Shown here one piece after another: positions 3,170-50,344 of a stretch of DNA of 64,000 nt (position 1 is its first letter; every line of letters begins with the position of its first letter). Below the pieces are notes generated by a model, which searched no databases, was not told where the DNA came from, and saw only the letters and a program-made list of their open reading frames with translations. Source of the stretch: a virus; the IMG/VR virus record IMGVR_UViG_3300013118_000772. The stretch is one strand, 5' to 3'. A program made the translations under genes and the position numbers.

Positions 3170-5716
3170 TCAATAATCAAAAAGACTTTGTTGTCCTTTT
3201 AAATCCAAAATCGACCAGCCCAATCCTTCAAAGATTCGCTCCATCTTACTAGTAGTTGCCTCTTTTACATGTTTGTCATAATCTAATATAGATTTTTCTG
3301 GGATATCATCATTGTTTCTAAAAGCTATTACATCTGTTTTTTGCATTCCTGGAACTCCCCTTACATATATTAATAAAAACTTTTCACCAACTTGAATATT
3401 TAGTTTAAGATTTTTATTTGAAAAAATAACTCCTCTGACTGTTGGTATATTTGTTTGATATTCATTTAATGGCTTTTTTAGTGGAGTAGGTAATCCTATT
3501 TCCTCAAAGCTATACTTATCGTTTCGTATATCTTTTTCCACATTTCTGACATATTTAACTATATTTTCTTTTGATTGTTCCTCTTCAATTAGCATTTTAA
3601 AAACACATTTCTGTGTTTTTCTTGCTATTATGGATTGATCAGATCTTACAACTTCAAATCCTACTATCTGCATTTTGCTAATTTCTTTACCTTTATAATA
3701 GGATAAGAGTCCAGCATATCTTTTCTTAGCTTGACCAAAAAATATTCTTTTATATGCTTTTTCAAAATTAATTTTGAAGTAATGCTGTTTACAGTTAAAT
3801 AGATTAGCAAAATCATCATAACTATCTTGTAAAAATTCAGCTATTTTATTTCCTTCTTCTAGTACTGGAATAAGCTCATTTTCCTGATATTTGGCTTTTA
3901 AAAAATTTGAATCTGTGTCCCCGTATAATGTATCATAATTATTTTTACTAGCTATATATCTGTTCCATAACACTGAATTCCTTCCAACAAAAGTAGTCGC
4001 TGCTGCTATATCTGGCATATATAACCTAAATCCATAATACCCTAACGTCCCATAAAATGAATTCATTAAGATTTTAAATGCAAATTGTTTAAATTCTAAT
4101 CTAATATATTCTGGACTATTATAATCATACTTATCTCTTTCTGCTTGTATATTTATTCTTTCATCGAATAAATATTCTAACATTCCTGGTAGGAATCCTT
4201 TTTTATCTTGACTAAAATAAACATTTTTATTTCTTACATGTTTTGATATAGTGGCAGGGAGCTCTATTTTAAAATCTTGTTTATGTAAATCCCAATTTGC
4301 TTTGAAAAATTCATCAAAAGCTGAACTAATTTTATCGTACCATCTATTATCAAATTTCTCCCCGTCCTTTGAAGAAATCATAAAGGTTGAATGATCTAAA
4401 TAAGGAATTTTTAAATGAACTGAATTTTCATTTCTCTTATCTTGCAAGGTTTCTGGACTAGCATTTAATGAAGAAATTATTTTAGGATACAATGAGGTAT
4501 AATCAAATACTACCGAGTTTTTATGTATTCCTTTTTTTGGTTTTAAAACAAATGCTCCGGCAAAACTTTGTTTTCTATGATGTTTTTTAGTAGGATGAAC
4601 AAATTTACCTTTTGTAAAGTGAAGCATAAATGAATCTACTACTCTTGAGTTATTAAACACATCATTAAAAGAACATTTACTTAATCTTCTTGTTTCATCA
4701 AATGTCTGAACAATCTTCTTTTTCTTTTCTATCCTATAAACTAACATTGTATCTTTTTTATTATAGGCAATGAATTTATCTAAATCATCCTGCCAAAGGC
4801 TATGTAAGCTTCCTGCATATTTTATTTTTTTTTCACCTAGTTCATGACTTGCGACATTATCTAATCTATAACTATCTAATTCTCCATATTGCATTTTTCT
4901 ATAAGCTTCTAGCATATCAAAAATAATTCTTCCTTTAACTAATACATCTCCATACTTATTTGTTAAAGCTACATTCATAGGTGATAACCTTCTATAATCC
5001 ATTCCTATACTATTCATTCTGTTAATAATATAGGCCATATCAAAATCTTTAACGTTCCACCCACTAAACATATCACAATCTGTTTTCTGGACGTATTTTA
5101 TAAATGATATTAACATATCTCGTTCATTATCAAAAAATAAAGTGAAATCTTTATACTTATAATCTTCTTCATTAACAGTTTTAAAACTAACTGTACCATT
5201 ATTAACAGTTTTCCTTTGAAGGTCTTGTCTCCAGACAAAAGTAATACATTTCTTATCCATATTATTAAAACATGTAATAGCATTTATTGGATCACTTGCA
5301 TGTTCTATATCTGGAAATCTATTATTGGAAGCAACTTCAATATCAAGATAGGTAACAGAGAGAGGGACTCCTTTTAAATCATTATATTTATCTATTATAT
5401 ATCTGGTAGGATATAAAACATCTGCCTCAAAACTTTCATCTACTTTTTCCCTTAATTCTTTAACATAGGCAGGAATTTTTGTAATAACTTTTACTACATT
5501 CCTTCCTTTTATATCTTTATATTTTACTTCTTCTATTTTTAATACTCTTTTATCCTTTCTTAATTTTTCAACTTCGTTTTTTAAAATATAAAAATATGGC
5601 TTAAAATCATTATCTCTTATTATTCTTCTTTCACCTTTTTCGTTTCTACCAAATATTACTATGGTAGGAACTTCATTAGTTACTTCATACTCTACTTGTA
5701 TAGGAGTTACAGCAAT
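3170..5716 (-). CDS. polB: Family B DNA polymerase with 3-5 exonuclease domain
   Basis: Exo I LDIEV (in the upstream extension), Exo II NVKDFDMAY, Exo III YNKKD, motif A DYTSLYPKII, motif B KILMNSFYG, motif C YGDTDS. The ORF track starts at Met 5260, but the frame continues 152 codons upstream with clear archaeal PolB N-terminal similarity (FKPYFYIL). Proposed start is ATT at 5714-5716 behind SD AGGTGA. Confidence 0.85.
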   Translation of the reverse strand: MAVTPIQVEYEVTNEVPTIVIFGRNEKGERRIIRDNDFKPYFYILKNEVEKLRKDKRVLKIEEVKYKDIKGRNVVKVITKIPAYVKELREKVDESFEADVLYPTRYIIDKYNDLKGVPLSVTYLDIEVASNNRFPDIEHASDPINAITCFNNMDKKCITFVWRQDLQRKTVNNGTVSFKTVNEEDYKYKDFTLFFDNERDMLISFIKYVQKTDCDMFSGWNVKDFDMAYIINRMNSIGMDYRRLSPMNVALTNKYGDVLVKGRIIFDMLEAYRKMQYGELDSYRLDNVASHELGEKKIKYAGSLHSLWQDDLDKFIAYNKKDTMLVYRIEKKKKIVQTFDETRRLSKCSFNDVFNNSRVVDSFMLHFTKGKFVHPTKKHHRKQSFAGAFVLKPKKGIHKNSVVFDYTSLYPKIISSLNASPETLQDKRNENSVHLKIPYLDHSTFMISSKDGEKFDNRWYDKISSAFDEFFKANWDLHKQDFKIELPATISKHVRNKNVYFSQDKKGFLPGMLEYLFDERINIQAERDKYDYNSPEYIRLEFKQFAFKILMNSFYGTLGYYGFRLYMPDIAAATTFVGRNSVLWNRYIASKNNYDTLYGDTDSNFLKAKYQENELIPVLEEGNKIAEFLQDSYDDFANLFNCKQHYFKINFEKAYKRIFFGQAKKRYAGLLSYYKGKEISKMQIVGFEVVRSDQSIIARKTQKCVFKMLIEEEQSKENIVKYVRNVEKDIRNDKYSFEEIGLPTPLKKPLNEYQTNIPTVRGVIFSNKNLKLNIQVGEKFLLIYVRGVPGMQKTDVIAFRNNDDIPEKSILDYDKHVKEATTSKMERIFEGLGWSILDLKGQQSLFDY

Positions 5717-5835
5717 TTTAGCTCACCTTCTATATTTTTTAGCATTGATCCACAGAAAGGACATTGGACATAATTATCTTTTACATCAAATCTTAATGGC
5801 TTTTTGCATTTTGGACAATTTCTTTTTACATACAT
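5707..5835 (-). CDS. Zinc-ribbon peptide (42 aa) between dpdA-like gene and polB
   Basis: Manual translation MYVKRNCPKCKKPLRFDVKDNYVQCPFCGSMLKNIEGELKLL; CPKC...CPFC; SD AGGTGA 5 nt upstream of ATG; 3' end overlaps polB N-terminal frame. Confidence 0.4.
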   Translation of the reverse strand: MYVKRNCPKCKKPLRFDVKDNYVQCPFCGSMLKNIEGELKLL

Positions 5836-5844
5836 TTAAATCAC

Positions 5845-7005
5845 CTAATAATCTAATAATCCTGCTGTATTGACTTTACCATTATCTTTTGAAAAATGAG
5901 ATTGAAATTTAACACATGCTTTATCAAATCCCTTATCTAAACTATAATCTATAAATTCAATAGCTAATTGTACTTCTTTATCAAAAAATTTACGTATGAA
6001 GTTTCTGTAAACTTCTTTATCATCTTTAAGACTATTACAAAGTTTAGTATATTGAATCAATTGATAAAGATTATGCAATGATATTATACCACCAGGTGCA
6101 CTACCTTGTGAGGATAACATATTTATACTATCAATTTGACTACATACAGGACACATGCAAGGTATATTTTTTATATTTGCTTTATTTGCCTGACCAAAGA
6201 ATAATTCCATTTTACCAAAATATAAAGGAAGAAAATATTTTCTTTGCATTGATCCCTGAGCCCAAGCACTGCTATCTGCAGTAATATTATCTACATATCT
6301 TGCTAAGTAAGCTAAAACAGGAATTGTTCTACTTCCACTGACAGCTAAAAAATGAAAGTTATTACTATGACCTTTATTGTACATATACATACCTTGGTAG
6401 GCTAATAACATTGGCTTTGCCTCTGGTTTACATCCAAACGACCAACCTGTTTTTGTCATATTAGGATATTTTGAAGCCATATTATACCAGTCGTCCATTT
6501 TTCTTTTATTAAATCCATAACCTTGAAAAATATTATATAGTTTTAAAGGTCTTTCAGGATTAGATTCTAAATATTTAGTATATAAATCTTCTGCTATTTT
6601 AAAATTTTCATTGCTAATATTCATAGACTTTTTCCATGCTTTTTCATCCGCATCAAAAGGAGGATAATCTAAAGGAAAACCAATATCACAATTTTCAACT
6701 TGCCAATCAAAAACTTCTTTTGGGTCTATTTCTATATCCTGACCTTTCCATTCTTTTAGGCTCATATTTTGAAATCCGCCACTATCCCCCATAAAAATAA
6801 TATCATCTTTTATTTTTAATAACTTTCGTATATTTTCTTTTTTCATACCATAATGAGCGGAAATTAAAATATAAGGATATTTAAATAAAGATTCTTTCTT
6901 CCACCATGTTAGGTCTTTTTCACCATCTTTAAAATGACCAGAAATTCGTTTATTTGTACTACATGCGCCAGGAACTTCTGCTGGAACGAAATTAAAGTTA
7001 CCCAT
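5845..7005 (-). CDS. dpdA: tRNA-guanine transglycosylase family enzyme, DpdA-like candidate DNA 7-deazaguanine transglycosylase
   Basis: TGT catalytic motif MGDSGGFQNMSL and zinc site CMCPVCSQ...H; 386 aa with no PUA domain; embedded in a preQ0 synthesis operon with no queF/queA or tRNA context. Confidence 0.7.
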   Translation of the reverse strand: MGNFNFVPAEVPGACSTNKRISGHFKDGEKDLTWWKKESLFKYPYILISAHYGMKKENIRKLLKIKDDIIFMGDSGGFQNMSLKEWKGQDIEIDPKEVFDWQVENCDIGFPLDYPPFDADEKAWKKSMNISNENFKIAEDLYTKYLESNPERPLKLYNIFQGYGFNKRKMDDWYNMASKYPNMTKTGWSFGCKPEAKPMLLAYQGMYMYNKGHSNNFHFLAVSGSRTIPVLAYLARYVDNITADSSAWAQGSMQRKYFLPLYFGKMELFFGQANKANIKNIPCMCPVCSQIDSINMLSSQGSAPGGIISLHNLYQLIQYTKLCNSLKDDKEVYRNFIRKFFDKEVQLAIEFIDYSLDKGFDKACVKFQSHFSKDNGKVNTAGLLDY

Positions 7006-7006
7006 T

Positions 7007-8353
7007 CTATTTCAACTCCTTTCTTATTGCATAAAGTTCATTTTCAAAAAATTCAAATATATCATCAGGAAGTATTATTACATGGTCGTCGTCTATTTGT
7101 ATGTCAAATATCTCTTGATGCCATACAGGGTCAATCCTTCCTAATGTTTGGTACTTATTTGAATATACATAAGCAAGTGTTTCTGCTTCCTTTTTTCCAT
7201 CTTCTGAATTAAAAATAGCATCTAAGTCATCTGTATTAAGTATTTCCCTATGACTACTTAATCCAATTCTTTCTGGGTCTTCTTTTAATCCTTCTAGCAT
7301 AAAAGCTATTCTTTGGCATTTGTCACATTCATCACAAGGAAGCCACATTCCGTTTTTACTTTTCTTTGGAGTAAAACAACTCATTTGATATTGATATAGA
7401 TTAAATATATCATTTCGTATGAATATCTTTTGAATTGCTGATTCTGATAAATTATACACTAATGAAAATACTTGCATATTAGTACCGATTTCTTTAAGAT
7501 AATGACTTATCTTCCTTTCAAAATGGGTTGATTGATCAAAATTATGACCAAGTATTTCATGACCTTTAAATTCAAATGGAACAGTACAATCAAATTCATT
7601 TCCAAAAACTAGATTTCTAATTCCATTAATATTGCAATAAGCCAATTCAATAAAAGCTAGAATAGGTAAATATAAATTATTCTTACCCCATTTAGGTGCA
7701 ATGAAATCAAAAATTTCAAATATATTGGTTTGTATTTTATCTGACCAGGGAATTGCTTTATACATCATTTCACTTGGATCAAATCGATTATCATCAATAA
7801 ATAGAGGATAAGTTCTATAATTCAACTTTTGTAAAGTAGTAAAAGTCATTGTACTTTCTTTACCTCCACTCATGCTAATAGCATATTTATCTTCTTTATT
7901 TAGCTTATATTTAATGGGATCTAATAAAGGAAATTTTTCATATCCTTCCAAGTTAATATCTTTAAATTCTTTGAATTTATTTGTGAATGTAGTTCTCATT
8001 TGGAAATCTAGATCCAAAAGAAATGAATGATCTAATGAATTTAATTTAAATAGATGTCCTTTACTTAATGATTCCCAATTAGTTAAACATTCATTTTTAG
8101 TAAATAAACCTATATTTAATAATTGAACGTGAACTGACATAGCTAATAATTTTAGACTAATCTTACTATTTTCTAAATTACAATATTTTGGAAAGTTAAT
8201 ATAAATTGGTATAATAATAGAATCATTGTTGTACTGTAACATATATTTACAAGTAAATATATTTTTCATAATTTTTAAATCAAATAATGTTACTCTATTA
8301 AATTTAAAATTAGGATTTTCTTCTATATGTTTAATTAATTCTTTTTTATTCAT
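7007..8353 (-). CDS. QueC-family PP-loop ATPase paralog with about 150-aa N-terminal domain of unknown function
   Basis: Variant PP-loop ISMSGGKEST and QueC-like C-terminal zinc cluster C-x13-CDECDKC; start ATG overlaps queC stop (ATGA). Confidence 0.6.
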   Translation of the reverse strand: MNKKELIKHIEENPNFKFNRVTLFDLKIMKNIFTCKYMLQYNNDSIIIPIYINFPKYCNLENSKISLKLLAMSVHVQLLNIGLFTKNECLTNWESLSKGHLFKLNSLDHSFLLDLDFQMRTTFTNKFKEFKDINLEGYEKFPLLDPIKYKLNKEDKYAISMSGGKESTMTFTTLQKLNYRTYPLFIDDNRFDPSEMMYKAIPWSDKIQTNIFEIFDFIAPKWGKNNLYLPILAFIELAYCNINGIRNLVFGNEFDCTVPFEFKGHEILGHNFDQSTHFERKISHYLKEIGTNMQVFSLVYNLSESAIQKIFIRNDIFNLYQYQMSCFTPKKSKNGMWLPCDECDKCQRIAFMLEGLKEDPERIGLSSHREILNTDDLDAIFNSEDGKKEAETLAYVYSNKYQTLGRIDPVWHQEIFDIQIDDDHVIILPDDIFEFFENELYAIRKELK

Positions 8354-9078
8354 TTAGTTAACCTCTTTGCCCTTCTAGCTAATGCAGCTAAAAAATCTTC
8401 TCTTTCATCTTTTCTTGACATTAATTTTTTATTTGCTTCCTCAGTTAGATTTTCAAATGGATCTTTTTCAAATATTTCATGATAGCTTATATTATTTAAC
8501 TCCAAAGCTACTGCTTTTCTTATACATGCTCTACAAACACCACATTCATGTATTTTGCCACTATAACAACTTCTAGCAAAATGTTTTAGATGTGAAACAA
8601 TGCCACCATTAGCTATATATTGCTTAACTATTTGTGCTTTAGTCAAGTGTTTAAATGGCATCTTAATACTAAAAGGGTAATTTTTTTCAAATACTTTATG
8701 TTTATCTATGGCAAAATAATTTAACATTCCTTCTACTTGTGCTTTGAAAATAAAATCCTTATCTTTTGTGCTATCTCCAGCAGTAAAACCCATATAAATT
8801 TCATTTCCATAATTAGCTGCAATTAAAGTCATAATAGAATTTCTATGAGGTATTATTTTATTTTCCATTTCCCATTCTACTAAAGGTAGTTTAAGTATTC
8901 TAACTTTATCTTTTATTTCTTCTGGCATAGCACTTAAATTTTCAAGTTCAATTTTATTGTCTTCTGTTTCTAAATCAAAAAAGATAATTTCATCATATAT
9001 ATCATTAAACAATAAACACCAGCTGTCTAGTCCACCAGAAAATAATAATATCTTTTTAACTTTTAAACTGTCCTGCAT
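8350..9078 (-). CDS. queC: 7-cyano-7-deazaguanine synthase
   Basis: PP-loop LFSGGLDS, zinc motif CYSGKIHECGVCRAC (C-x7-C-x2-C-x2-C), 242 aa. Confidence 0.85.
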   Translation of the reverse strand: MQDSLKVKKILLFSGGLDSWCLLFNDIYDEIIFFDLETEDNKIELENLSAMPEEIKDKVRILKLPLVEWEMENKIIPHRNSIMTLIAANYGNEIYMGFTAGDSTKDKDFIFKAQVEGMLNYFAIDKHKVFEKNYPFSIKMPFKHLTKAQIVKQYIANGGIVSHLKHFARSCYSGKIHECGVCRACIRKAVALELNNISYHEIFEKDPFENLTEEANKKLMSRKDEREDFLAALARRAKRLTK

Positions 9079-9431
9079 TTTATCTTTCCTCCTGAAAGTT
9101 CTCTTATTCCAAAATTTATTTCTTTATCATTATCTATATATTCGTCTATATGATATATTTCACAAAATGCTTTTTTGAATTGAACTACATAAGTATTATG
9201 CCACATCTTTAAAGGATTGTAAATTATCTTTATTTTGTCTGGATTCATTCCAAATCTTTTCAACGTTTTAAGAGTAATTTTTTTATCTTTATAATTTCTA
9301 GCTGTTATAATTATTTTAATATCTTCTATATTTACCTTTGGATTTAACCTATTAAATCTCTTTTTTAACCAATGATTTTTAAATTTAGATATAATTATAG
9401 TCCCATCCAAATCATAAGCTATTTTTTTCAT
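9063..9431 (-). CDS. Small HAD-superfamily phosphatase (possible nucleotidase)
   Basis: HAD motif I AYDLDGTI (DxDGT) at N-terminus; 122 aa. Confidence 0.5.
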   Translation of the reverse strand: MKKIAYDLDGTIIISKFKNHWLKKRFNRLNPKVNIEDIKIIITARNYKDKKITLKTLKRFGMNPDKIKIIYNPLKMWHNTYVVQFKKAFCEIYHIDEYIDNDKEINFGIRELSGGKIKCRTV

Positions 9432-9805
9432 CTTAATCCTTTTTCTAATAAAAAATTTATTATATCATCCAAACCTTCGAAAATTATACTTGAATAATTT
9501 ATTAACCATGGACTTCTCCATTCATCATGAACAAAAACATAAACTTTCTTTCTCAAGCTTTTGGCATAAAACATTTCCATTGCTGTACCCCAACCAGGTT
9601 TTGTTCCGTCAACAATTAAAATATTGGATTGTCTAATATGTTTTCTATCTTTATTAACAATAGCTCTATGTTTACCTTCTTGATATTTATAATCCATTGG
9701 ATTTATTATTTTAAATTTTTTTCTAAGTTTAATTTTAACTCTTCTTCTCCAACTTTCCCTGAAGGGATCACCATCAAGAGTTCCACTGAGATATATTGTT
9801 TTCAT
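9428..9805 (-). CDS. Nucleoside 2-deoxyribosyltransferase / Rcl(DNPH1)-like protein
   Basis: N-terminal IYLSGTL and central LIVDGTKPGWGTAMEMFYA resemble NDT/Rcl family signatures (YLAGP...D-G-T-x-x-E-x-G-x-A); 125 aa. Confidence 0.4.
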   Translation of the reverse strand: MKTIYLSGTLDGDPFRESWRRRVKIKLRKKFKIINPMDYKYQEGKHRAIVNKDRKHIRQSNILIVDGTKPGWGTAMEMFYAKSLRKKVYVFVHDEWRSPWLINYSSIIFEGLDDIINFLLEKGLR

Positions 9806-9874
9806 TAATCCTCACCTACATCTACTGACATAATATTTCCATAATCATCTTCTACAAAGATAATATTTGGGTAG

Positions 9875-10474
9875 TTATCTTCCATTATGAACCCCATTAG
9901 CAAATCTTAAAAATTCCGCTCTTGTTTCTAAATTGTCTTTAAACGCTCCTCTTAGTTCAATTGTGGTCATATATCCCTCTTTTTTAACTCCTCTTATTGA
10001 TTTGCATAAATGTTTTGCTTTTAAAACCAATGCCATGCCATACGGTTGATTATTTTTTCCATTACTCAACTCTTGCCATAAGTAATCTAAAATATCTTTT
10101 GCTAATCGTTCTTGTATTTGTAATCTAGCTGAAAAATAATCTACTACTCTTGCAACTTTACTCAACCCCAATAATTTTCCATTAGAATTTGGTAAATAAG
10201 CAAAATAATAATTCCCTAAAAACCCAATAATATGATGCTCACAAAAGCTATTAAAATTTCCTTCGTCCATAATCATTTGATCATATGTTACACCATCTTT
10301 TCCATTTCTGAATGTAGTTACTTTTGGTAGTTGTTTTGGATCATATCCTCTAAATATTTCTTTCCACATATTAACTACTCTTTTAGGTGTATCTTTTAAA
10401 CCTTCACGATTTGGGTCTTCGCCTATAAACTCTAACATGCTTCTAACAATCCACCTCATATTATCTTCATCCAT
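9875..10474 (-). CDS. folE: GTP cyclohydrolase I
   Basis: FCEHHIIGFLG and LLGLSKVARVVDYFSARLQIQERL match FolE core; 199 aa. Confidence 0.8.
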   Translation of the reverse strand: MDEDNMRWIVRSMLEFIGEDPNREGLKDTPKRVVNMWKEIFRGYDPKQLPKVTTFRNGKDGVTYDQMIMDEGNFNSFCEHHIIGFLGNYYFAYLPNSNGKLLGLSKVARVVDYFSARLQIQERLAKDILDYLWQELSNGKNNQPYGMALVLKAKHLCKSIRGVKKEGYMTTIELRGAFKDNLETRAEFLRFANGVHNGR

Positions 10475-11092
10475 TTATTTTCCCCTCCGTTTAACTCCCC
10501 ATACATCTACATGTAATCTTGGGCTATATCTTATTTTATGTTTGATACAAAAATCCCAAACTTTTCTTGATATTTTTTTATTTTTTTCTTTATCAGATGT
10601 AGTCAATGGCATTAATAATGATGCTTTTTTTGCCATTTCTTTATTAACTTTATCCAGATCAGATGCTATTTTAATATCATAAAAATATCCAAGCCAAAAA
10701 TTATTATAACTCATTAATTGCATCACTCGATTTAATGTATTTGCATCTTTTGGAGATACGCTAATATAATCAAAATAAGATAATTTATCCCTAGTTAATA
10801 AATCTCCATTAGTTTCTAAATGATGACTAAAACTAGGGAGCTGGCTAATTATTTGTGTCATTTCTATAAACTGTAAAAGTCCCTCACCTCCAGTCCAAAC
10901 TACTGTATCTGTCCCTGATTTTTTTATAGTATTGATAATTTTTTTAATGTTAATTTCATCTCCTTCTTTATGATATTTTGTATCACACCAAGAACATGAT
11001 CTGTTACAGCCGCTTAACCGAATAAAAATAGCTGGAATTCCTACAAATTTTCCTTCGCCTTGTAATGAGACAAACATTTCGTTGATTTTCAT
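10475..11092 (-). CDS. queE: 7-carboxy-7-deazaguanine synthase (radical SAM)
   Basis: N-terminal MFVSLQGEG and radical SAM cluster CNRSCSWCDT; 205 aa. Confidence 0.85.
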   Translation of the reverse strand: MKINEMFVSLQGEGKFVGIPAIFIRLSGCNRSCSWCDTKYHKEGDEINIKKIINTIKKSGTDTVVWTGGEGLLQFIEMTQIISQLPSFSHHLETNGDLLTRDKLSYFDYISVSPKDANTLNRVMQLMSYNNFWLGYFYDIKIASDLDKVNKEMAKKASLLMPLTTSDKEKNKKISRKVWDFCIKHKIRYSPRLHVDVWGVKRRGK

Positions 11093-11328
11093 TTCTTTTT
11101 ACCTTTATCCGGGTTAGTCCTATCCCTGGTTATAGTAGTTATGTGCTTTATAATTATCTTCCTTTTGTCAGTCATAATAACAATATTTAAATGATTAAAG
11201 TTCATGCCTCTTATTTTACCTTTAATAGATATTACTTCTTTCCCTTCAAGATATTTAACTTCACATTCCTTACCAATGAATCTTTTTATCTCATCTAAAT
11301 ACGGGTTAACTTCTTTTCCCTTCATCAT
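11089..11328 (-). CDS. Hypothetical small basic protein, possibly Sm-like fold
   Basis: 79 aa; GKIRGMNFNHLNIVIMTD loosely resembles an Sm1 motif; lies between queE and queD. Confidence 0.25.
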   Translation of the reverse strand: MMKGKEVNPYLDEIKRFIGKECEVKYLEGKEVISIKGKIRGMNFNHLNIVIMTDKRKIIIKHITTITRDRTNPDKGKKK

Positions 11329-11770
11329 TTATATTCACCTCTGCATAACAAGTTGGAGTTTCATATAGTCTTATTCTTGAAAGTTTTAAATGCCTCGGTA
11401 GATTTATATCTAAAACATCAAATATATAATTAACCATATTTTCAGCAGTAACATTTTCTTTTAATCTTAATACTTTCTGATCAATTTTTTCTTCCAAATA
11501 TTTAGCAATATCTTCGTCTACGATAGATAAACTATTTATAATTAATGCATGATCAAATTTATCTACTACATATTCTTTAACTACTTCCTTAAAATCTCCA
11601 AAATCTATTACCATTCCATCATCTGATTCAAAAAATTTAAATTTATCTTGTATCAATCCCATTACTTCTACTTCTAATAAATAACTATGTCCATGAATTG
11701 ACCTACATTTTCCTTTATGGTTAACTAATCTATGTGCACATTCCCATCTAAATATTTTACATATTTTCAT
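11306..11770 (-). CDS. queD: 6-carboxy-5,6,7,8-tetrahydropterin synthase
   Basis: CAHRLVNHKGKCRSIHGHSY (Cx-HGH zinc motif); ORF-track start at 11869 is probably an over-extension; likely start MKICKIFRWECAHR. Confidence 0.8.
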   Translation of the reverse strand: MKICKIFRWECAHRLVNHKGKCRSIHGHSYLLEVEVMGLIQDKFKFFESDDGMVIDFGDFKEVVKEYVVDKFDHALIINSLSIVDEDIAKYLEEKIDQKVLRLKENVTAENMVNYIFDVLDINLPRHLKLSRIRLYETPTCYAEVNINDEGKRS

Positions 11771-11975
11771 TTTTATCCCTCTTATAATGTTCTGAAAAAA
11801 TTGCTTTATGATGAGCTTTTGAATGTTTATTGCATTCATTACATTGATATTTCCAATGATAATTATCAATACAATCTTGTCTTAATGTAAGAAATGTTTT
11901 TTTATTTTGACAATCATCACATCTGCCAAATAATCTAATTCCTAATAAATGTAATGTAACCATTTTATTCATCAA
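11757..11975 (-). CDS. Zinc-finger protein (72 aa)
   Basis: CDDCQNKK...CNECNKH Cys pairs; overlaps only the doubtful 5' extension of queD. Confidence 0.3.
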   Translation of the reverse strand: MMNKMVTLHLLGIRLFGRCDDCQNKKTFLTLRQDCIDNYHWKYQCNECNKHSKAHHKAIFSEHYKRDKNENM

Positions 11976-24429: not shown

Positions 24430-24780
24430 ATGACTAAGAAAAAGGTTAAACCTATTTTGCTAAAAACTAAAAAAAGTTCTAATAAAAAAGGACCAATCTC
24501 TAAGTTTTTTGATATGACAGTTTATGAATTTTTGGTAGAGTTAATATTATTTATTATTGTATTGACTATTTCATCATTATTATATTATTTTACAATATTT
24601 ATGCTTGGATTTATTACTTTGTTCCTTCTTTGGTTTTTTGGAAATTCAAATATGGGGATAAATTTATTTCTTTTCGATGATGTTAATATATTTAATATAA
24701 CTAACATTATTAGAGTTGCTATGTTTTTAATTATATTTGTAAAAGTTTTACTCAAAATAAAAGGTGATAAAAATAATTAA
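24430..24780 (+). CDS. Hypothetical membrane protein (116 aa, 2-3 TM)
   Basis: Hydrophobic helices; basic N-terminus. Confidence 0.35.
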   Translation: MTKKKVKPILLKTKKSSNKKGPISKFFDMTVYEFLVELILFIIVLTISSLLYYFTIFMLGFITLFLLWFFGNSNMGINLFLFDDVNIFNITNIIRVAMFLIIFVKVLLKIKGDKNN

Positions 24781-25495
24781 CTCAATGGCTAAAGGAAAAG
24801 GATATGAACGCGAAATAGTTAATAAACTTAAAGAAGGATTTAAAATACCCTTTCATAGAGTTCCGATGTCGGGTGGTTTCCAAACTATTCAAAATACTAC
24901 CGACTCTAGATTTTCAGGAGATGTTTTTACTGAGGATAAAGAGTTTAATGATAAATATGACGTTGTAATAGAATGTAAAAAAATAGGATATGTTTTAGAT
25001 GTTGAAAGTATAGCTTTAGCAAATCAAGAAAAGAAAAATTGTACTATATATGGTTGGATTAAACAATGTAAAAGAGAATCAAATGATAAGAATTTTTGGT
25101 TAATATTCTCATGGAATAGATTAAAATGTGATATTATTATTAGGGGATTAAATTTAGGTGGTGGGGATTGGCATATCTTCCCACCATTAACTCTTAAATA
25201 TTTTATAAGTAAAGAATTAGAAAAAGATTTTGGTGATAGAAAAAGCGTATTTATTAATAAGATAGATGATGTAGATGATGTCAATGATGAGGTAAGAAAA
25301 AACTTTGAACAAAAACATGGAATGTCTATGAAGAATTATTTTAAAGCCAATAAATTTATATATAGAGCTAAATATAGTTTATTAAATGAAATATCTAATA
25401 AGAGAAGTGAATGGATAGAGGAAAATAAAAAGTTAATAGGTCTTACTGAATTTGTATGGTTCCATATTATGAGTAAAGAAGAAAGGGAAAAATAA
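24764..25495 (+). CDS. hjc: Holliday junction resolvase Hjc-like nuclease with C-terminal extension
   Basis: N-terminal KGKGYEREIVNKL...GF...RVPMSGG...SGDVF...YDVVIECKK follows the Hjc G-x-ER / SG / D / E-x-K pattern; 243 aa vs about 130-140 for canonical Hjc. Confidence 0.5.
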   Translation: MIKIINSMAKGKGYEREIVNKLKEGFKIPFHRVPMSGGFQTIQNTTDSRFSGDVFTEDKEFNDKYDVVIECKKIGYVLDVESIALANQEKKNCTIYGWIKQCKRESNDKNFWLIFSWNRLKCDIIIRGLNLGGGDWHIFPPLTLKYFISKELEKDFGDRKSVFINKIDDVDDVNDEVRKNFEQKHGMSMKNYFKANKFIYRAKYSLLNEISNKRSEWIEENKKLIGLTEFVWFHIMSKEEREK

Positions 25496-45094: not shown

Positions 45095-45106
45095 GAGGTG
45101 TAGCTA

Positions 45107-48100
45107 ATTGAAACGGCTTCCCTCCTTAAAAAAAAAGTATTTTTTGTTTTTTTATTAGTTTTTACTCTTTCTAATTTTGTATTTGCCGAGAAAGGAATTA
45201 ATTGGATAGATGAAAATAATGAGATAACCATATACAGTTATCCTGTTAATTATTTAGATGAAAATACTTATAAGCCAATTAATACTACTATAATTCAATC
45301 AGACGTTTGTGATTTTGATTATTGTGTAAGAAGTGGAATTTATTACGTAGATTTTAAATCAAATTCTAACTTAAATAATATAGTTAAATTTATCTATAAA
45401 GGGCAAACAATTTATTATACTCCAGAAAAATTACAATATATAGTAAATAATAAAAAAAGTCTAATTGCTAATCCCTCTAAGGTGACAGGAATTTCAGAAG
45501 GTAATAAATTTATTTATCCTAAAATATATGGTGAAGGATTAGACTTAAGTTATGATTATGAAAATACTTTTCTAAAAGAACAGTTAATTATTGACCGATT
45601 TGATAGATTGCCTGAACCTGGTAACCAGTTAACAAAAGACAATGAAGAAATTTACTTAAGTTTAGAATTTGAATTGGATACTAATGATAATGTGAATAAT
45701 AAATTTAGAGATAAAGAAAGCAAAGTCTTATGGGATAAGCAATCATTAAGGGAGTTTAAAAAAATAGAAGTTTTAAACGAAAATAATGAAGTATTGACCT
45801 TTCTTCCTGAACCTTATGCTATTGATTCAAAAGGAAATAAAATTAAACTACAATATCAATTTAAAAAAGAAGGTCAAAAGTTAATCATATCTATTTTAAC
45901 TCCATATAGTTGGATATCAGATATTAAAAGAGTTTATCCTATCTATATAGATCCTTCTACGACTTTAAATTATAATAGTGGTGGAATGGATTCTGAGATT
46001 GATAGTGATACTCCTAATTCCAATTTTGGTTCAGCTACTAACATGGAAGTTTATGAAGTTGATGTTTCGAGATCATTAATTTGGTTTAATATGTCTTCAA
46101 TTATGGAAAAAGCAGTTTATAGCTCAAGTATGACTATATATAAAGAAAGTGGTTCACTTGCTACTATTACAGTTTACGTGCATAGAATACTTAACGAATG
46201 GATAGAAAATCAAGTAACCTGGAACAATAGGAAAACAGGCACTGCTTGGGATACTGCAGGTGGAGATTTTAGTTCAATAGCAGAAGTATCTCTAAAAGAA
46301 TATTTTGGATCAGGCTGGCACACATGGAATATGACAAATGTAACTAAGGATATTGTTAAAGGCGTATATACTAACTATGGTTGGATTTTAACAGACAATC
46401 CAACCGTGTACCAAGTTAGACTTTCCACACAGGATAATACTATTGGAGGAGATATAAGAAGACCATATATGACAGTTAATTATTATGATTCAGTAACTAT
46501 AGATTCAGCATTAATGTTTCCAAATAATCCTTTATCATCAGATAACATTACATGTAATACAACTCCTGTAGCTGATGCTAGTACAGTTAAAATAGAATTT
46601 AGATGGTTTAATTCCACACATGAGTTATTATATGGCAACGTTAGTGGAGTTAGTAATAATACAAATTCTTTAATAACCACACTTGGAAGTGGAAATTATA
46701 CCACAGGTAATACTATAAACTGCTCATTAAGAGGATATTATAATTCCGATATTGGAGGATATAGTGATTGGAAATCATCATTGAAAACTATTAGTAGTCA
46801 ACCTCCTACTTGGGATGAAATAATAACATCTGTAAACATAAATCATAGTAATAACTTAAGTATTCAATTAAATGCCACTGATCCTGATTTAGACGCTTTA
46901 ACGTGGAACATAAATGAGTCAATGGCAACCATTAACCAAACTGGATATTTATTTGATAATCCAGCTATAACTGACTATGGAAATTACTCTTTGCAAATTA
47001 ATGTTACTGATGGATCTAATACTATAGAAATGAACATTAGTTATGAGGTAATAAATAACCAACCATTAATAGATAATTTAGATGTTGGTCCTCAGAGTGA
47101 CCTACTACCTACTGAACTACATGATCTTGTCTGTAATTATAATATTAGTGATGTTGATTCTGATAATTTAAATATATCTTTCGATTGGTATAATAATGGT
47201 GCTAGTCAGAGTATTAATAATGGAACTTTAGGATACGGAAATACTAGTATAGGTGAGTTATGGAATTGTAGCATAAATATAACTGATACTGTTCTTAGTA
47301 ATTATCAACAATCTAGCTCAGTTGAGATAAAAAACTTTTATGGTAATTTTAGCGTTGACTGGATAACTCCAACTGTTAATTCCACTCATGGATATTATAA
47401 GTTAATATTATATCAATATAATATAAGCTGTATAAATGGATATACTTGTGGTAATGTAAATGTTACTCTTGATCCAATTACAACTTATAAGTTTAACTCT
47501 ACATATGAAAATATAGACTTTTTTGCTTATGAAAAAGAAGGAACAGGTGGAGATATATATGCTGCTGCAACCGTCAATATAACTCTAAATCCTAATTTAG
47601 ATAGCAATGATGGAAGTTTCCTTCCTTCCTCATCTGGTGGTGGACATAGTTTACAAAGATTTATTGCTTGTGTAAATGAGAAAATAGATAGAATAGAAAA
47701 TATAACATGGATGTACGATGGATCTTCTTCCTCCGGGGTAGGAGATGATATGATAATGTTTATTTACAACTTTACCAATTCTAGTTGGGATTATTTTGAT
47801 ATAATAGAAATTGATTATGATATAACACTTGAATATAATAGTAGCTCAACCGATGATTTAATAAATGATTCTGGATGTTTGTTAATGGAAATTGCAACTG
47901 ATGAAATAGGTTCCTCCATTAAAACAGATTATGTTCAATTAAGTGTGGAATATACAGAATTTAAAGGTTTAATTGATAATGACCCAAACTCAGAGCCATT
48001 TTATCATAATGGAACTGAAATAAACTATGAGTGTGGAACATTAAATCATAACGAGAGTTGCATTGCTAGTTTTTGGGTCAATGCTACAGGAGAAACTGAT

Positions 48101-50344
48101 TTATATGAATTTTTCACTATTATATCTTCAAATTATACAAACATGGTAGATGTTGAATCTAGTTTTTTATATATTAATTTAACTGTTCCAATTGTTAATA
48201 ATCGTTCTGGTTTTGAAAATATGGTCCTTGCTGATGTATCTGGTGATTTGAAAGATATTAGTAGATTTAAATTTGATTCATTATCCTCTAATGATTTTTT
48301 TATCAGTAAACTATTGGCTGATAGAAATATTTTTGATTCTTCTTTAACCGGTGAGATATTATATAGATTATCTAATATATTTCGATCCAAAGAAGATTAT
48401 AATAGTTTAAATGATGAATTATATAAAAGTAGGTCATTAAGATTATTTACTTATGATAAAAGTAATATAAATGAAATTTTAGTTAATGAATTTTGGTATA
48501 AAAGATATATTAATAACCTAATTTCATACGATGATTATTTAAATGTATTATTACTTACTGAAAGAAACATAGATAGTTCCATTTCAATAACCGATTTTAA
48601 TAATAAAATATATATGACAAAATTTAATGTATACGAAGTCGAATCATTACAAGACTTTATTGATAAAGAAGCTTTGTTTAATAGAAAGTTATCTGATATA
48701 GTCACTATAAATGAGCTAGATAATATATTATACTCATATAAAAGAAATAATATAGAATATATTTCATATGGAGAATTTTTAAATGATTTATCTATTCATT
48801 TTATTGAAACAGAAGATAGTTCAGGTATAGAAGATAATATTAAAAGAAAAATAGGATTACTACTAGATGAAGAATTGTCTATTAATGATATTAGATTGTT
48901 GTTACTAGGTTTAAAAAGAGATGGATTAGAAAGCATTTCCATATCTGAATTATTAACAAAAACATCGTTTTTCAATAGTGATATTTTGGATTCTTTTAGT
49001 ATATTTGATCAACTGATAAAAAATAAAGTTATATTAAGAAGATTAGATTTAGTTTTGAATATAAATGAAGATTCATTTTTTAAAAGCAATATATTTAGAT
49101 TTTTATATGAAGATATTTCAATTCAAGAATATATTAATAGAATAGGAGTATTTAAAAGAAATATTTTTTCATCAATTGATATTATAGATATAGAAAAAGT
49201 AATAAATCAAAAGAAACGATTAGGTTATGATTCAATAGAAGTGTTGGAACTACTAGATAATTTAGGTTTATATGATAGAGATAGTCAAGATTCAATTGAT
49301 TTGTTAGAGGAACTGGAAAGAAAGGGAATTTTAAGTAGCTCAATTTTCGATTCTGTTTCCTTATCTGAACTAGAAAAAATAATTAATAACTATAATCGAA
49401 ATAAACAATTAAGTGTAAATATAAATGAAATTTTAGATGATTTAGGATTATTTAATCCAAACATATCAGAAGAAGTAAATGTAATAGATATATCATCAAT
49501 TTTATATAACTTGTTTAGATACGGTGATGATCAGGTAATTTTAACAGAGGATTTCAGCTTTATAGATATTTTGTATTACAAATTTCCTTTATATAATGAT
49601 ATTTTAGTTAATGATGATATAATAAGAAATTCAGATTTTCAAAGATTGTTAACTGATGCTCTTTCTTCTAACGACAATATAAATAGATATTACTCTACTA
49701 TTATGATTTTTTATGATCTAGTACAAATACTTCCATCTGCTAATGTTAATAATTTATTTTTTAATTCAATTAATTTAAATATTGATCTATTTGATATAAC
49801 CAAAAGCATGAGTTTATTTTCGAGAAATATTGATTCCAATTTTGGATTATCAGAATCAATAAACAAAGCAATTAATTTTAACAGAAAACTTTTTGAAAAT
49901 TTATCCAGCTTGGATTTTATAACCAAAAGAAGAGTTTCATTTAGAAATATTAATTCTTTTATAAACATCAATGAATTTATAAATAAAACTAGAAGTGCAG
50001 TTTCACCCGTATCAGTAATAACTCCTACTTCTAGTAGTCCTTATGAACAATATAAGATGGAGGTTTTTATTAATGAAACAATGCCAGTAGAAATAATTGT
50101 ATTGGGAAAAGGAATTTTAGTTCCACCTGAATGGGCAAGAATAGTAAACAATGTTAAATGGCTATTTCAAAAAGAAAATATTGGAATTTTAATTCCTCTT
50201 TTAATATTAATTTTAATTGTTATAACAGGATCAGTATTTGTATTAATAAAAAAGAAAGTTAAAAGTAAAGGTAAAAGAGTAAAAGTTAAAAGGAAGAAAA
50301 ATGATAAAGTTAGATATATCAAACGGCGTAATAATGTTAAATAG
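45107..50344 (+). CDS. Giant surface glycoprotein (about 1745 aa): N-terminal signal peptide, beta-rich glycosylated domains, C-terminal degenerate tandem repeats, C-terminal TM anchor
   Basis: ORF track begins at GTG 45482, but the frame is open from 45104 and encodes a textbook signal peptide (KKKVFFVFLLVFTLSNFVFA then EKG). Proposed ATT start at 45107-45109 behind SD GAGGTG. C-terminal IGILIPLLILILIVITGSVFVLI then KKKVKSKGKR. Confidence 0.55.
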   Translation: METASLLKKKVFFVFLLVFTLSNFVFAEKGINWIDENNEITIYSYPVNYLDENTYKPINTTIIQSDVCDFDYCVRSGIYYVDFKSNSNLNNIVKFIYKGQTIYYTPEKLQYIVNNKKSLIANPSKVTGISEGNKFIYPKIYGEGLDLSYDYENTFLKEQLIIDRFDRLPEPGNQLTKDNEEIYLSLEFELDTNDNVNNKFRDKESKVLWDKQSLREFKKIEVLNENNEVLTFLPEPYAIDSKGNKIKLQYQFKKEGQKLIISILTPYSWISDIKRVYPIYIDPSTTLNYNSGGMDSEIDSDTPNSNFGSATNMEVYEVDVSRSLIWFNMSSIMEKAVYSSSMTIYKESGSLATITVYVHRILNEWIENQVTWNNRKTGTAWDTAGGDFSSIAEVSLKEYFGSGWHTWNMTNVTKDIVKGVYTNYGWILTDNPTVYQVRLSTQDNTIGGDIRRPYMTVNYYDSVTIDSALMFPNNPLSSDNITCNTTPVADASTVKIEFRWFNSTHELLYGNVSGVSNNTNSLITTLGSGNYTTGNTINCSLRGYYNSDIGGYSDWKSSLKTISSQPPTWDEIITSVNINHSNNLSIQLNATDPDLDALTWNINESMATINQTGYLFDNPAITDYGNYSLQINVTDGSNTIEMNISYEVINNQPLIDNLDVGPQSDLLPTELHDLVCNYNISDVDSDNLNISFDWYNNGASQSINNGTLGYGNTSIGELWNCSINITDTVLSNYQQSSSVEIKNFYGNFSVDWITPTVNSTHGYYKLILYQYNISCINGYTCGNVNVTLDPITTYKFNSTYENIDFFAYEKEGTGGDIYAAATVNITLNPNLDSNDGSFLPSSSGGGHSLQRFIACVNEKIDRIENITWMYDGSSSSGVGDDMIMFIYNFTNSSWDYFDIIEIDYDITLEYNSSSTDDLINDSGCLLMEIATDEIGSSIKTDYVQLSVEYTEFKGLIDNDPNSEPFYHNGTEINYECGTLNHNESCIASFWVNATGETDLYEFFTIISSNYTNMVDVESSFLYINLTVPIVNNRSGFENMVLADVSGDLKDISRFKFDSLSSNDFFISKLLADRNIFDSSLTGEILYRLSNIFRSKEDYNSLNDELYKSRSLRLFTYDKSNINEILVNEFWYKRYINNLISYDDYLNVLLLTERNIDSSISITDFNNKIYMTKFNVYEVESLQDFIDKEALFNRKLSDIVTINELDNILYSYKRNNIEYISYGEFLNDLSIHFIETEDSSGIEDNIKRKIGLLLDEELSINDIRLLLLGLKRDGLESISISELLTKTSFFNSDILDSFSIFDQLIKNKVILRRLDLVLNINEDSFFKSNIFRFLYEDISIQEYINRIGVFKRNIFSSIDIIDIEKVINQKKRLGYDSIEVLELLDNLGLYDRDSQDSIDLLEELERKGILSSSIFDSVSLSELEKIINNYNRNKQLSVNINEILDDLGLFNPNISEEVNVIDISSILYNLFRYGDDQVILTEDFSFIDILYYKFPLYNDILVNDDIIRNSDFQRLLTDALSSNDNINRYYSTIMIFYDLVQILPSANVNNLFFNSINLNIDLFDITKSMSLFSRNIDSNFGLSESINKAINFNRKLFENLSSLDFITKRRVSFRNINSFININEFINKTRSAVSPVSVITPTSSSPYEQYKMEVFINETMPVEIIVLGKGILVPPEWARIVNNVKWLFQKENIGILIPLLILILIVITGSVFVLIKKKVKSKGKRVKVKRKKNDKVRYIKRRNNVK

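Follow-up and report, generated by a model that had tools for sequence, protein, structure and literature searches.

Putative AUU initiation of a family B DNA polymerase gene in a probably archaeal virus

The window analyzed here is a 64,000-nucleotide stretch of viral DNA (IMG/VR record IMGVR_UViG_3300013118_000772), and its polB gene, which lies on the minus strand and encodes a family B DNA polymerase (PolB), has no canonical start codon for its conserved N-terminus. We consider it probable, from comparison with related genes, that polB is translated from an AUU codon at 5716-5714 behind a conserved Shine-Dalgarno (SD) sequence, probably with the aid of coupling to a short upstream open reading frame (ORF) that encodes a zinc ribbon. 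A first-pass annotation, made from the letters of the window, had favored this start over a -1 frameshift fusion of the two frames. Its preference is strengthened by an SD that recurs in relatives, by ATT starts in two non-sister lineages, and by two relatives in which the zinc ribbon is encoded separately. The mechanism itself is already known; what is new is its location, its recurrence within a clade of viral polymerases, and the likely archaeal setting.

A polymerase frame without a canonical start

The minus-strand polB frame has 850 open codons, from 5722 to a TGA stop at 3172-3170, and its upstream boundary is an in-frame TGA at 5725-5723. The first ATG, GTG, or TTG in this frame is ATG 5260, 154 codons past the upstream TGA, and it is here that public calls begin a protein of 696 amino acids (aa). 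The codons that follow the upstream TGA are GCT AAA ATT (5716-5714) GCT GTA ACT CCT ATA CAA GTA GAG TAT, and the 152 codons from this ATT to ATG 5260 are free of ATG, GTG, and TTG. From the base composition, 152 stop-free codons would arise by chance with a probability of about 1.6e-7. The coordinates of the first-pass annotation all hold (those of the polB frame, the SD, the ATT, the zinc-ribbon ORF, and the AAAA run at the junction). Its treatment of TGA as a genuine stop is likewise borne out, with TGA ending polB, queC, and 18 of the 64 listed ORFs overall.

The segment upstream of ATG 5260 encodes the conserved N-terminal domain and exonuclease motif I (Exo I), as had been proposed. It is 42 to 57% identical to the N-termini of full-length PolBs of 815 to 887 aa, and the homology of the full-length product to these proteins covers 99% of its length. 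The Exo I residues D127, I128, and E129 are invariant in the PolB alignment and lie upstream of the called Met155, and the Pfam exonuclease domain at residues 97 to 290 straddles that methionine. The gene product is a family B DNA polymerase of the archaeal/viral type with the Exo I DxE motif; it matches PF00136 (DNA_pol_B, 1.2e-46) and PF03104 (DNA_pol_B_exo1, 4e-20), and a protein search returned 453 homologues. No other start delivers a PolB with both its conserved N-terminal domain and Exo I. An internal start at Met155 was rejected, as ATG 5260 has no SD before it and the Exo I motif would be deleted. Public calls lack this region because gene finders accept only ATG, GTG, and TTG, a limit that has also shortened the homologue P0013 and shifted P0003.

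Assembly error, which the first-pass annotation had wished to see excluded, was rejected as an explanation. The 210-nucleotide (nt) polB junction is identical in three contigs, one from ENA and two from JGI, that stem from different samples, with neither an ATG nor an indel, and polB is carried by six contigs in all (14 to 77 kb, from at least three samples). These assemblies are practically clones of one another (no more than 1 mismatch in 8 kb); they rule out an assembly error yet hold no evolutionary or conservation information.

The sequence AGGTGA (5728-5723) precedes the ATT by 6 nt, as first described, as part of an SD of 6 to 8 nt, and the ATT lies two codons past the in-frame TGA. For most genes in the window, an SD of 5 nt or more stands 4 to 10 nt ahead of an ATG, and the few first canonical GTG or TTG starts with no SD are, for the most part, wrong calls close to an SD-ATG. 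In the proposed mechanism, the polB SD GAAGGTGA, contained in the 3' end of the zinc-ribbon ORF, would position the ribosome on the AUU. Ribosomes ending the zinc-ribbon ORF would feed this site, and such translational coupling is probable because the ORF stops only 7 nt past the AUU. The product would be a full-length PolB of 848 residues that starts Met-Ala-Val-Thr-Pro-Ile-Gln-Val-Glu-Tyr, with Met assumed from the initiator tRNA, and its predicted N-terminal peptide is (M)AVTPIQVEYEVTNEVPTIVIFGR. The weak AUU codon would hold polymerase output below that of the neighboring genes. We infer the use of AUU, the help from coupling, and low expression as a selected effect.

Polymerase start codons in relatives and in known systems

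Relatives were obtained by protein search and contig look-ups, and polB starts were compared across 15 lineages (Table 1). Three have ATT, one has TTG, and the other eleven have ATG, with P0002 and P0007 counted as ATG only from a called protein that begins MI. No close relative was found by DNA in the viral contig collection or among GenBank phages, where protein identity is at most 31%. The gene order DpdA-like, PolB, PD-(D/E)XK nuclease is maintained in the relatives.

In lineage L091, an in-frame TAA immediately precedes the ATT, which aligns with the Met of the common MIxxEY start (as IIQVEY), and the nearly invariant Glu-Tyr falls upstream of the gene caller's GTG. The preceding DpdA-like gene ends before the SD, which makes a frameshift fusion impossible there, and the sequence is identical across the JGI, ENA, and Logan assemblies. 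Lineage L186 (2012-2050; ENA ZHAN22-2 scaffold_7379, protein P0003) likely provides a third ATT-start polB. Its called GTG is formed by the last three bases of the SD AGGAGGTG, a spacing of 0, and its ATT, 6 nt past this SD, aligns with the Met of the homologues (IIICEQ vs MIICEY). In the window itself, the ATT had been said to match the position where other PolBs begin, and this stands as an approximation; the relatives begin 4 codons further downstream (MIxxEY vs I-AVTP-IQVEY).

In a neighbor-joining tree, the three ATT lineages are not monophyletic, and the sister of P0003 has ATG. Three non-sister ATT lineages and one TTG lineage among 15 suggest selection for weak polymerase translation and not accident, because AUG-to-AUU switches are almost never seen in cellular genomes, where a single one was counted for 61,358 ancestral AUG starts, in a study dependent on annotations in which AUU is seldom allowed (PMC5622118).

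When 165 polB loci were screened for the absence of a canonical start, only one, L021 (2689-2930 of IMGVR_UViG_3300009619_000010), was notable besides the window and L091. It encodes a distant viral PolB (28% identity to that of the window) with 80 open codons before the first canonical start; homology begins 44 codons upstream of the first ATG, and the candidate start is a CTG 7 nt past AAGGT. At another locus, L173, a 275-nt gap with no called gene (2226-2500) lies between the DpdA-like gene and polB. By eye it looks more G+C-rich than its surroundings (e.g., GGTGGGGGGCAAGAAGCCAC), and either a structured RNA or a decayed gene may lie there.

Several points weigh against AUU initiation. A weak start on an essential replication enzyme is counter-intuitive, and in this AT-rich genome an SD followed by ATT at a suitable spacing recurs by chance inside genes. 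The pair was found unconvincing as a statistical signal alone; what gives the argument its weight is where the pair lies, at the start of an open frame, and the comparison with relatives, not the motif. In bacteria AUU is a poor initiator that is discriminated against by IF3 (PMC2268962), and in archaea, which probably include the host of this virus, aIF1 has been reported to discriminate against non-canonical starts (PMC6237735). A natural AUU start in archaea was not found documented in a non-exhaustive literature search. The canonical in-frame GTG of L186 means that this case is not clean. In the homologue P0011, finally, a zinc ribbon is fused in frame to PolB through a linker of similar length to that in the window, which makes a fusion product in the window virus plausible as a protein.

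AUU and AUA starts with strong or extended SDs are known in bacteria. The Escherichia coli genes infC and pcnB resemble window polB in having an in-frame AUU behind an SD and no usable canonical start, and there the weak codon limits output and sensitizes it to an initiation fidelity factor (PMC2268962, PMC13009471). Both are cellular genes, infC being autoregulated by IF3, whereas window polB is a viral replication gene with a probable archaeal host. In Staphylococcus aureus, cvfC1 (AUU) and ccpN and infC (AUA) likewise pair a non-canonical start with a strong, well-spaced SD; these starts are conserved between species and give about 10% of AUG output (PMC13009471). They were mapped by ribosome profiling and reporters, whereas the start of window polB is proposed from sequence comparison, and unlike them the polB ATT is not uniformly conserved, occurring in 3 of the 15 lineages. 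Among phages, gene 26 of T4 has an AUU start that is internal and not the only start of the gene. The gp43 polymerases of T4 and RB69 are translationally autoregulated, and here T4 gp43 binds an mRNA operator with no weak codon involved.

The zinc-ribbon ORF and other routes to the polymerase N-terminus

The 42-aa zinc-ribbon ORF has an SD of its own and stops at TAA 5709-5707. It shares 10 nt with the head of the proposed polB coding sequence, which lies in the -1 frame relative to it across the AAAA run, an arrangement that the first-pass annotation had described correctly. At the junction its frame reads GAA GGT GAG CTA AAA TTG CTG TAA. Related mini-ORFs stand free directly downstream of polB in L086 (5560-5682, 40 aa) and L185 (5072-5182, 36 aa). 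In P0011, which is present in two assemblies (L084, 3001-3135, and L085), the linker between the fused zinc ribbon and the PolB N-terminus is about 20 residues, compared with 17 in the window. Among the 120 best PolB homologues, P0011 has an N-terminal zinc ribbon and the other 119 have none. The four zinc ribbons align at 31 to 34% identity, chiefly through their cysteines. A zinc-ribbon module of 36 to 44 residues is found with this PolB clade as an upstream ORF (window), a downstream ORF (L086 and L185), or an N-terminal fusion (P0011), and it appears to travel with PolB and to work both free and fused. Both readings of the window are therefore possible, and a fusion is not needed.

Programmed -1 frameshifting would have ribosomes slip on A_AAA (5719-5716) to make a zinc-ribbon-PolB protein of about 890 aa (...NIEGELK-IAVTPIQVEY...) next to the free 42-aa protein, and we regard it as improbable. 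A frame overlap that extends only across the AAAA run and a required shift of -1 both fit this reading; the fusion in P0011, with its similar linker length, and the alignable zinc ribbons also speak for it. With its overlapping frames and the A-run at their overlap, the junction is like those of E. coli dnaX (A_AAA_AAG) and Saccharolobus fucA1 (A_AAA_AAU), and its replication-protein product is a further likeness to programmed -1 frameshifting systems. Unlike dnaX and fucA1, it has neither a tandem slippery heptamer nor a stimulatory structure, and the distance to the SD is wrong. The overlap GAG CUA AAA UUG CUG UAA contains no X_XXY_YYZ heptamer, which leaves only a single-tRNA slip (CUA AAA UUG), and the productive -1 window is about 4 codons (GAG CUA AAA UUG CUG). 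The downstream 93 nt fold with -15.7 kcal/mol (z -1.5, 15 of 200 shuffles as good), which is not significant in a search that did not cover pseudoknots, and the region around the polB SD is unremarkable. The SD and the slip codon are 4 nt apart, a spacing unsuited to promoting a -1 shift. In dnaX the spacing is about 10 nt (-1) and in prfB 3 nt (+1), and 4 nt favors +1 over -1. The overlapping out-of-frame arrangement was seen in no relative examined. L086 and L185 have a separate zinc ribbon downstream of polB, and in L091, which has the ATT and SD alike, there is no upstream ORF from which a shift could start. For the fusion that the first-pass annotation had kept as its alternative, every standard signal of a shift is absent, but the in-frame counterpart in one relative leaves it some probability.

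It is very unlikely that polB is a young pseudogene, in which an ancestral ATG or in-frame zinc-ribbon fusion was recently lost and PolB is absent or a trace-level accidental product. The clonal assemblies leave little time for decay of polB to show, and the extreme rarity of AUG-to-AUU switches in cellular genomes (1 in 61,358; PMC5622118) also counts in favor of a lost start. Against decay, the 848-codon frame is intact in a 27% GC genome and the SD is intact as well, contigs of this virus of 14 to 77 kb came from at least three samples, and ATT recurs in two other lineages with an intact polB. No second polymerase gene was seen in the window by family and profile annotation of its proteins.

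Slightly less credible still is termination-reinitiation, by which ribosomes would stop at TAA 5709-5707 and restart at ATA 5701-5699 (the Ile of IQVEY), leaving the SD-ATT unused. This ATA is the only other near-cognate codon near the polB N-terminus, 5 nt past the zinc-ribbon stop and one residue from the homologous Met position. It lies 21 nt from the SD, outside the 4 to 10 nt range of the genome, and L091 and L186 instead show ATT at proper SD spacing. Accurate reinitiation in E. coli, moreover, still picks normal start codons (PMC2268962). Recoding or read-through of TGA 5725-5723 from an in-frame ATG 13 codons upstream (5764-5762), whose product would hold MSFLWINAKKYRR-x-AKIAV, was rejected and has next to no probability: TGA terminates 18 of 64 ORFs including polB, no SD precedes ATG 5764, no homologue has such an N-terminal extension, and the stretch is itself part of the region that codes for the zinc ribbon. 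The six-A run at 5740-5735 was also rejected as a site of transcriptional slippage, since an added A leads to TGA 5725-5723 and a lost A to an immediate TAG.

Other start sites, genome setting, and implications

A second gene in the window has a layout of SD, 6 nt, and ATT equal to that of polB. The ORF at 45104-50344 (plus strand) is open for 1746 codons, and the earliest canonical start in its frame, GTG 45482, comes at codon 126; public calls begin there and lose 126 codons. The part before this GTG encodes a signal peptide (IETASLLKKKVFFVFLLVFTLSNFVFA, then EKG). The homologues P0121 and P0122 have N-terminal signal peptides of their own and align from about codon 44 to 55. The putative SD-ATT start of this gene is not clean owing to an alternative, in which translation would start at TTG 45108 (+1 frame, 7 nt from the SD) and recover the frame by a -1 slip at the dnaX-like A_AAA_AAG within the nine-A run at 45128-45136 or by an added A in the transcript, giving MKRLPSLKKK-VFFVF....

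The two ATT heads, 5728-5713 (minus) and 45096-45110 (plus), read AGGTG-A-GCTAA-AA-TTG and AGGTG-TA-GCTAA-TTG. Both have a TTG one base out of frame (ATTG) that is absent in L091 and L186 and is probably a coincidence. A further non-AUG start is possible at 24762-24787 (plus). There, the SD AGGTGAT has two in-frame codons of a 243-aa ORF behind it, ATA at 4 nt and ATT at 7 nt, and the first ATG of that ORF (24785) comes at 16 nt; the ATT shares bases with the TAA of the upstream gene (ATTAA). The Cas4-like PD-(D/E)XK nuclease (minus) is called from TTG 3155 by JGI (304 aa) and from ATG 3026 by ENA (261 aa). The latter, with AGGTGA at 5 nt, looks the better start, and several other first-TTG or first-GTG calls look like similar miscalls.

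Table 1. Features of the window and polB starts in related lineages
Feature	Position	Strand	Remarks
Proposed full-length polB coding sequence	3170..5716	-	ATT start, 848 codons, TGA stop; homology and Exo I upstream of called Met
Proposed AUU start codon of polB	5714..5716	-	Sole near-cognate codon at functional SD distance; ATT homologous in L091, L186
polB SD GAAGGTGA	5723..5730	-	Inside zinc-ribbon ORF; last three bases are the in-frame TGA closing the polB frame
AAAA run	5716..5719	-	Only site for a productive -1 slip from zinc-ribbon to polB frame (A_AAA_U)
42-aa zinc-ribbon ORF (CPKC-x14-CPFC)	5707..5835	-	Called in all assemblies; weak zinc-ribbon Pfam matches
SD AGGTGAT of zinc-ribbon ORF	5840..5846	-	4 nt before ATG 5835
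Second SD-ATT head (candidate)	45095..45109	+	GAGGTG, TAGCTA, ATT; ATT one codon past in-frame TAG
Large secreted/surface protein	45107..50344	+	CBM96 and disaggregatase-repeat matches; signal peptide; 126 codons before GTG 45482
Nine-A run	45128..45136	+	Contains A_AAA_AAG; equal length in L169, L170 (two other assemblies)
polB start, window			GAAGGTGA-gctaaa (6 nt), ATT
polB start, L091			GAAGGTGA-tttaa (5 nt), ATT
polB start, L186			AGGAGGTG-gaaaaa (6 nt), ATT (likely)
polB start, L172			AAAGGTG-ttttc (5 nt), TTG
polB start, L173			GAAGGTGA-aaa (3 nt), ATG
polB start, L086, L087, L089, L090, L093, L171, L174, L177, L185			ATG; SD in most, none evident in L171, L174

The minus-strand block around polB is, by annotation, a replication module joined to a 7-deazaguanine DNA-modification module. 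The replication side comprises a clamp-loader ATPase, the Cas4-like nuclease, PolB, and the zinc-ribbon ORF. Beside polB, at 5845-11839 (minus), is a run of 7-deazaguanine (preQ0-type) genes with a DpdA-like protein of the TGT family, QueC, FolE (GTP cyclohydrolase I), a radical SAM protein (QueE-like), and a 6-pyruvoyl tetrahydropterin synthase family protein (QueD-like). Amid them lie a 448-aa protein without a family match (7007-8353) and a nucleoside deoxyribosyltransferase-like protein (9428-9805). The plus strand encodes an ATP-dependent DNA ligase, a HerA-like ATPase, and large surface proteins, and there are no tRNA genes in the window.

The best PolB matches among cultured viruses are the haloarchaeal tailed viruses HVTV-1 and HCTV-1/5 (E about 1e-73, 26.6% identity), as against 3e-50 for cyanomyoviruses, and they are very distant. 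HVTV-1 also has a DNA modification pathway of the DpdA/preQ0 type, to which the FolE-QueE-QueD-QueC-DpdA-like module of the window would be similar. Unlike these viruses, the window, a viral genome segment, has 27% GC and comes from an anoxic marine sample, and most structural genes among its proteins have no PHROG or Pfam match. The source samples are anoxic marine water (ENA SAMN10231894, JGI 3300009128 and 3300013119). A PolB of 58% identity with a normal ATG lies on a 3.9-kb contig (L177, DAOWAL010000110.1) that is binned with a Candidatus Aenigmatarchaeota (DPANN) genome, which is a hint of the host lineage of the virus clade, and the weak disaggregatase-repeat match is another hint of the host. 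An archaeal host, possibly DPANN, is likely because the PolBs of haloarchaeal viruses score best and because of the PolB contig binned with Aenigmatarchaeota.

As a practical consequence, public protein sets systematically truncate the window polymerase, with 152 essential residues lost. The occurrence of the zinc-ribbon mini-protein upstream of, downstream of, or fused to PolB points to an unrecognized polymerase accessory module. It is possible, if still doubtful, that a probably archaeal (possibly DPANN-infecting) virus clade recurrently places PolB and at least one other gene under AUU as a selected throttle, perhaps combined in the window virus with a low-level -1 slip that yields a zinc-ribbon-PolB fusion like that of P0011. 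If this is true, AUU initiation would occur naturally in the archaeal domain, for which a limited literature search gave no documented precedent, and if the host is archaeal, such initiation would become directly testable on a defined natural mRNA. Clade-wide AUU use would then be a recurrent, selected means of throttling polymerase synthesis.

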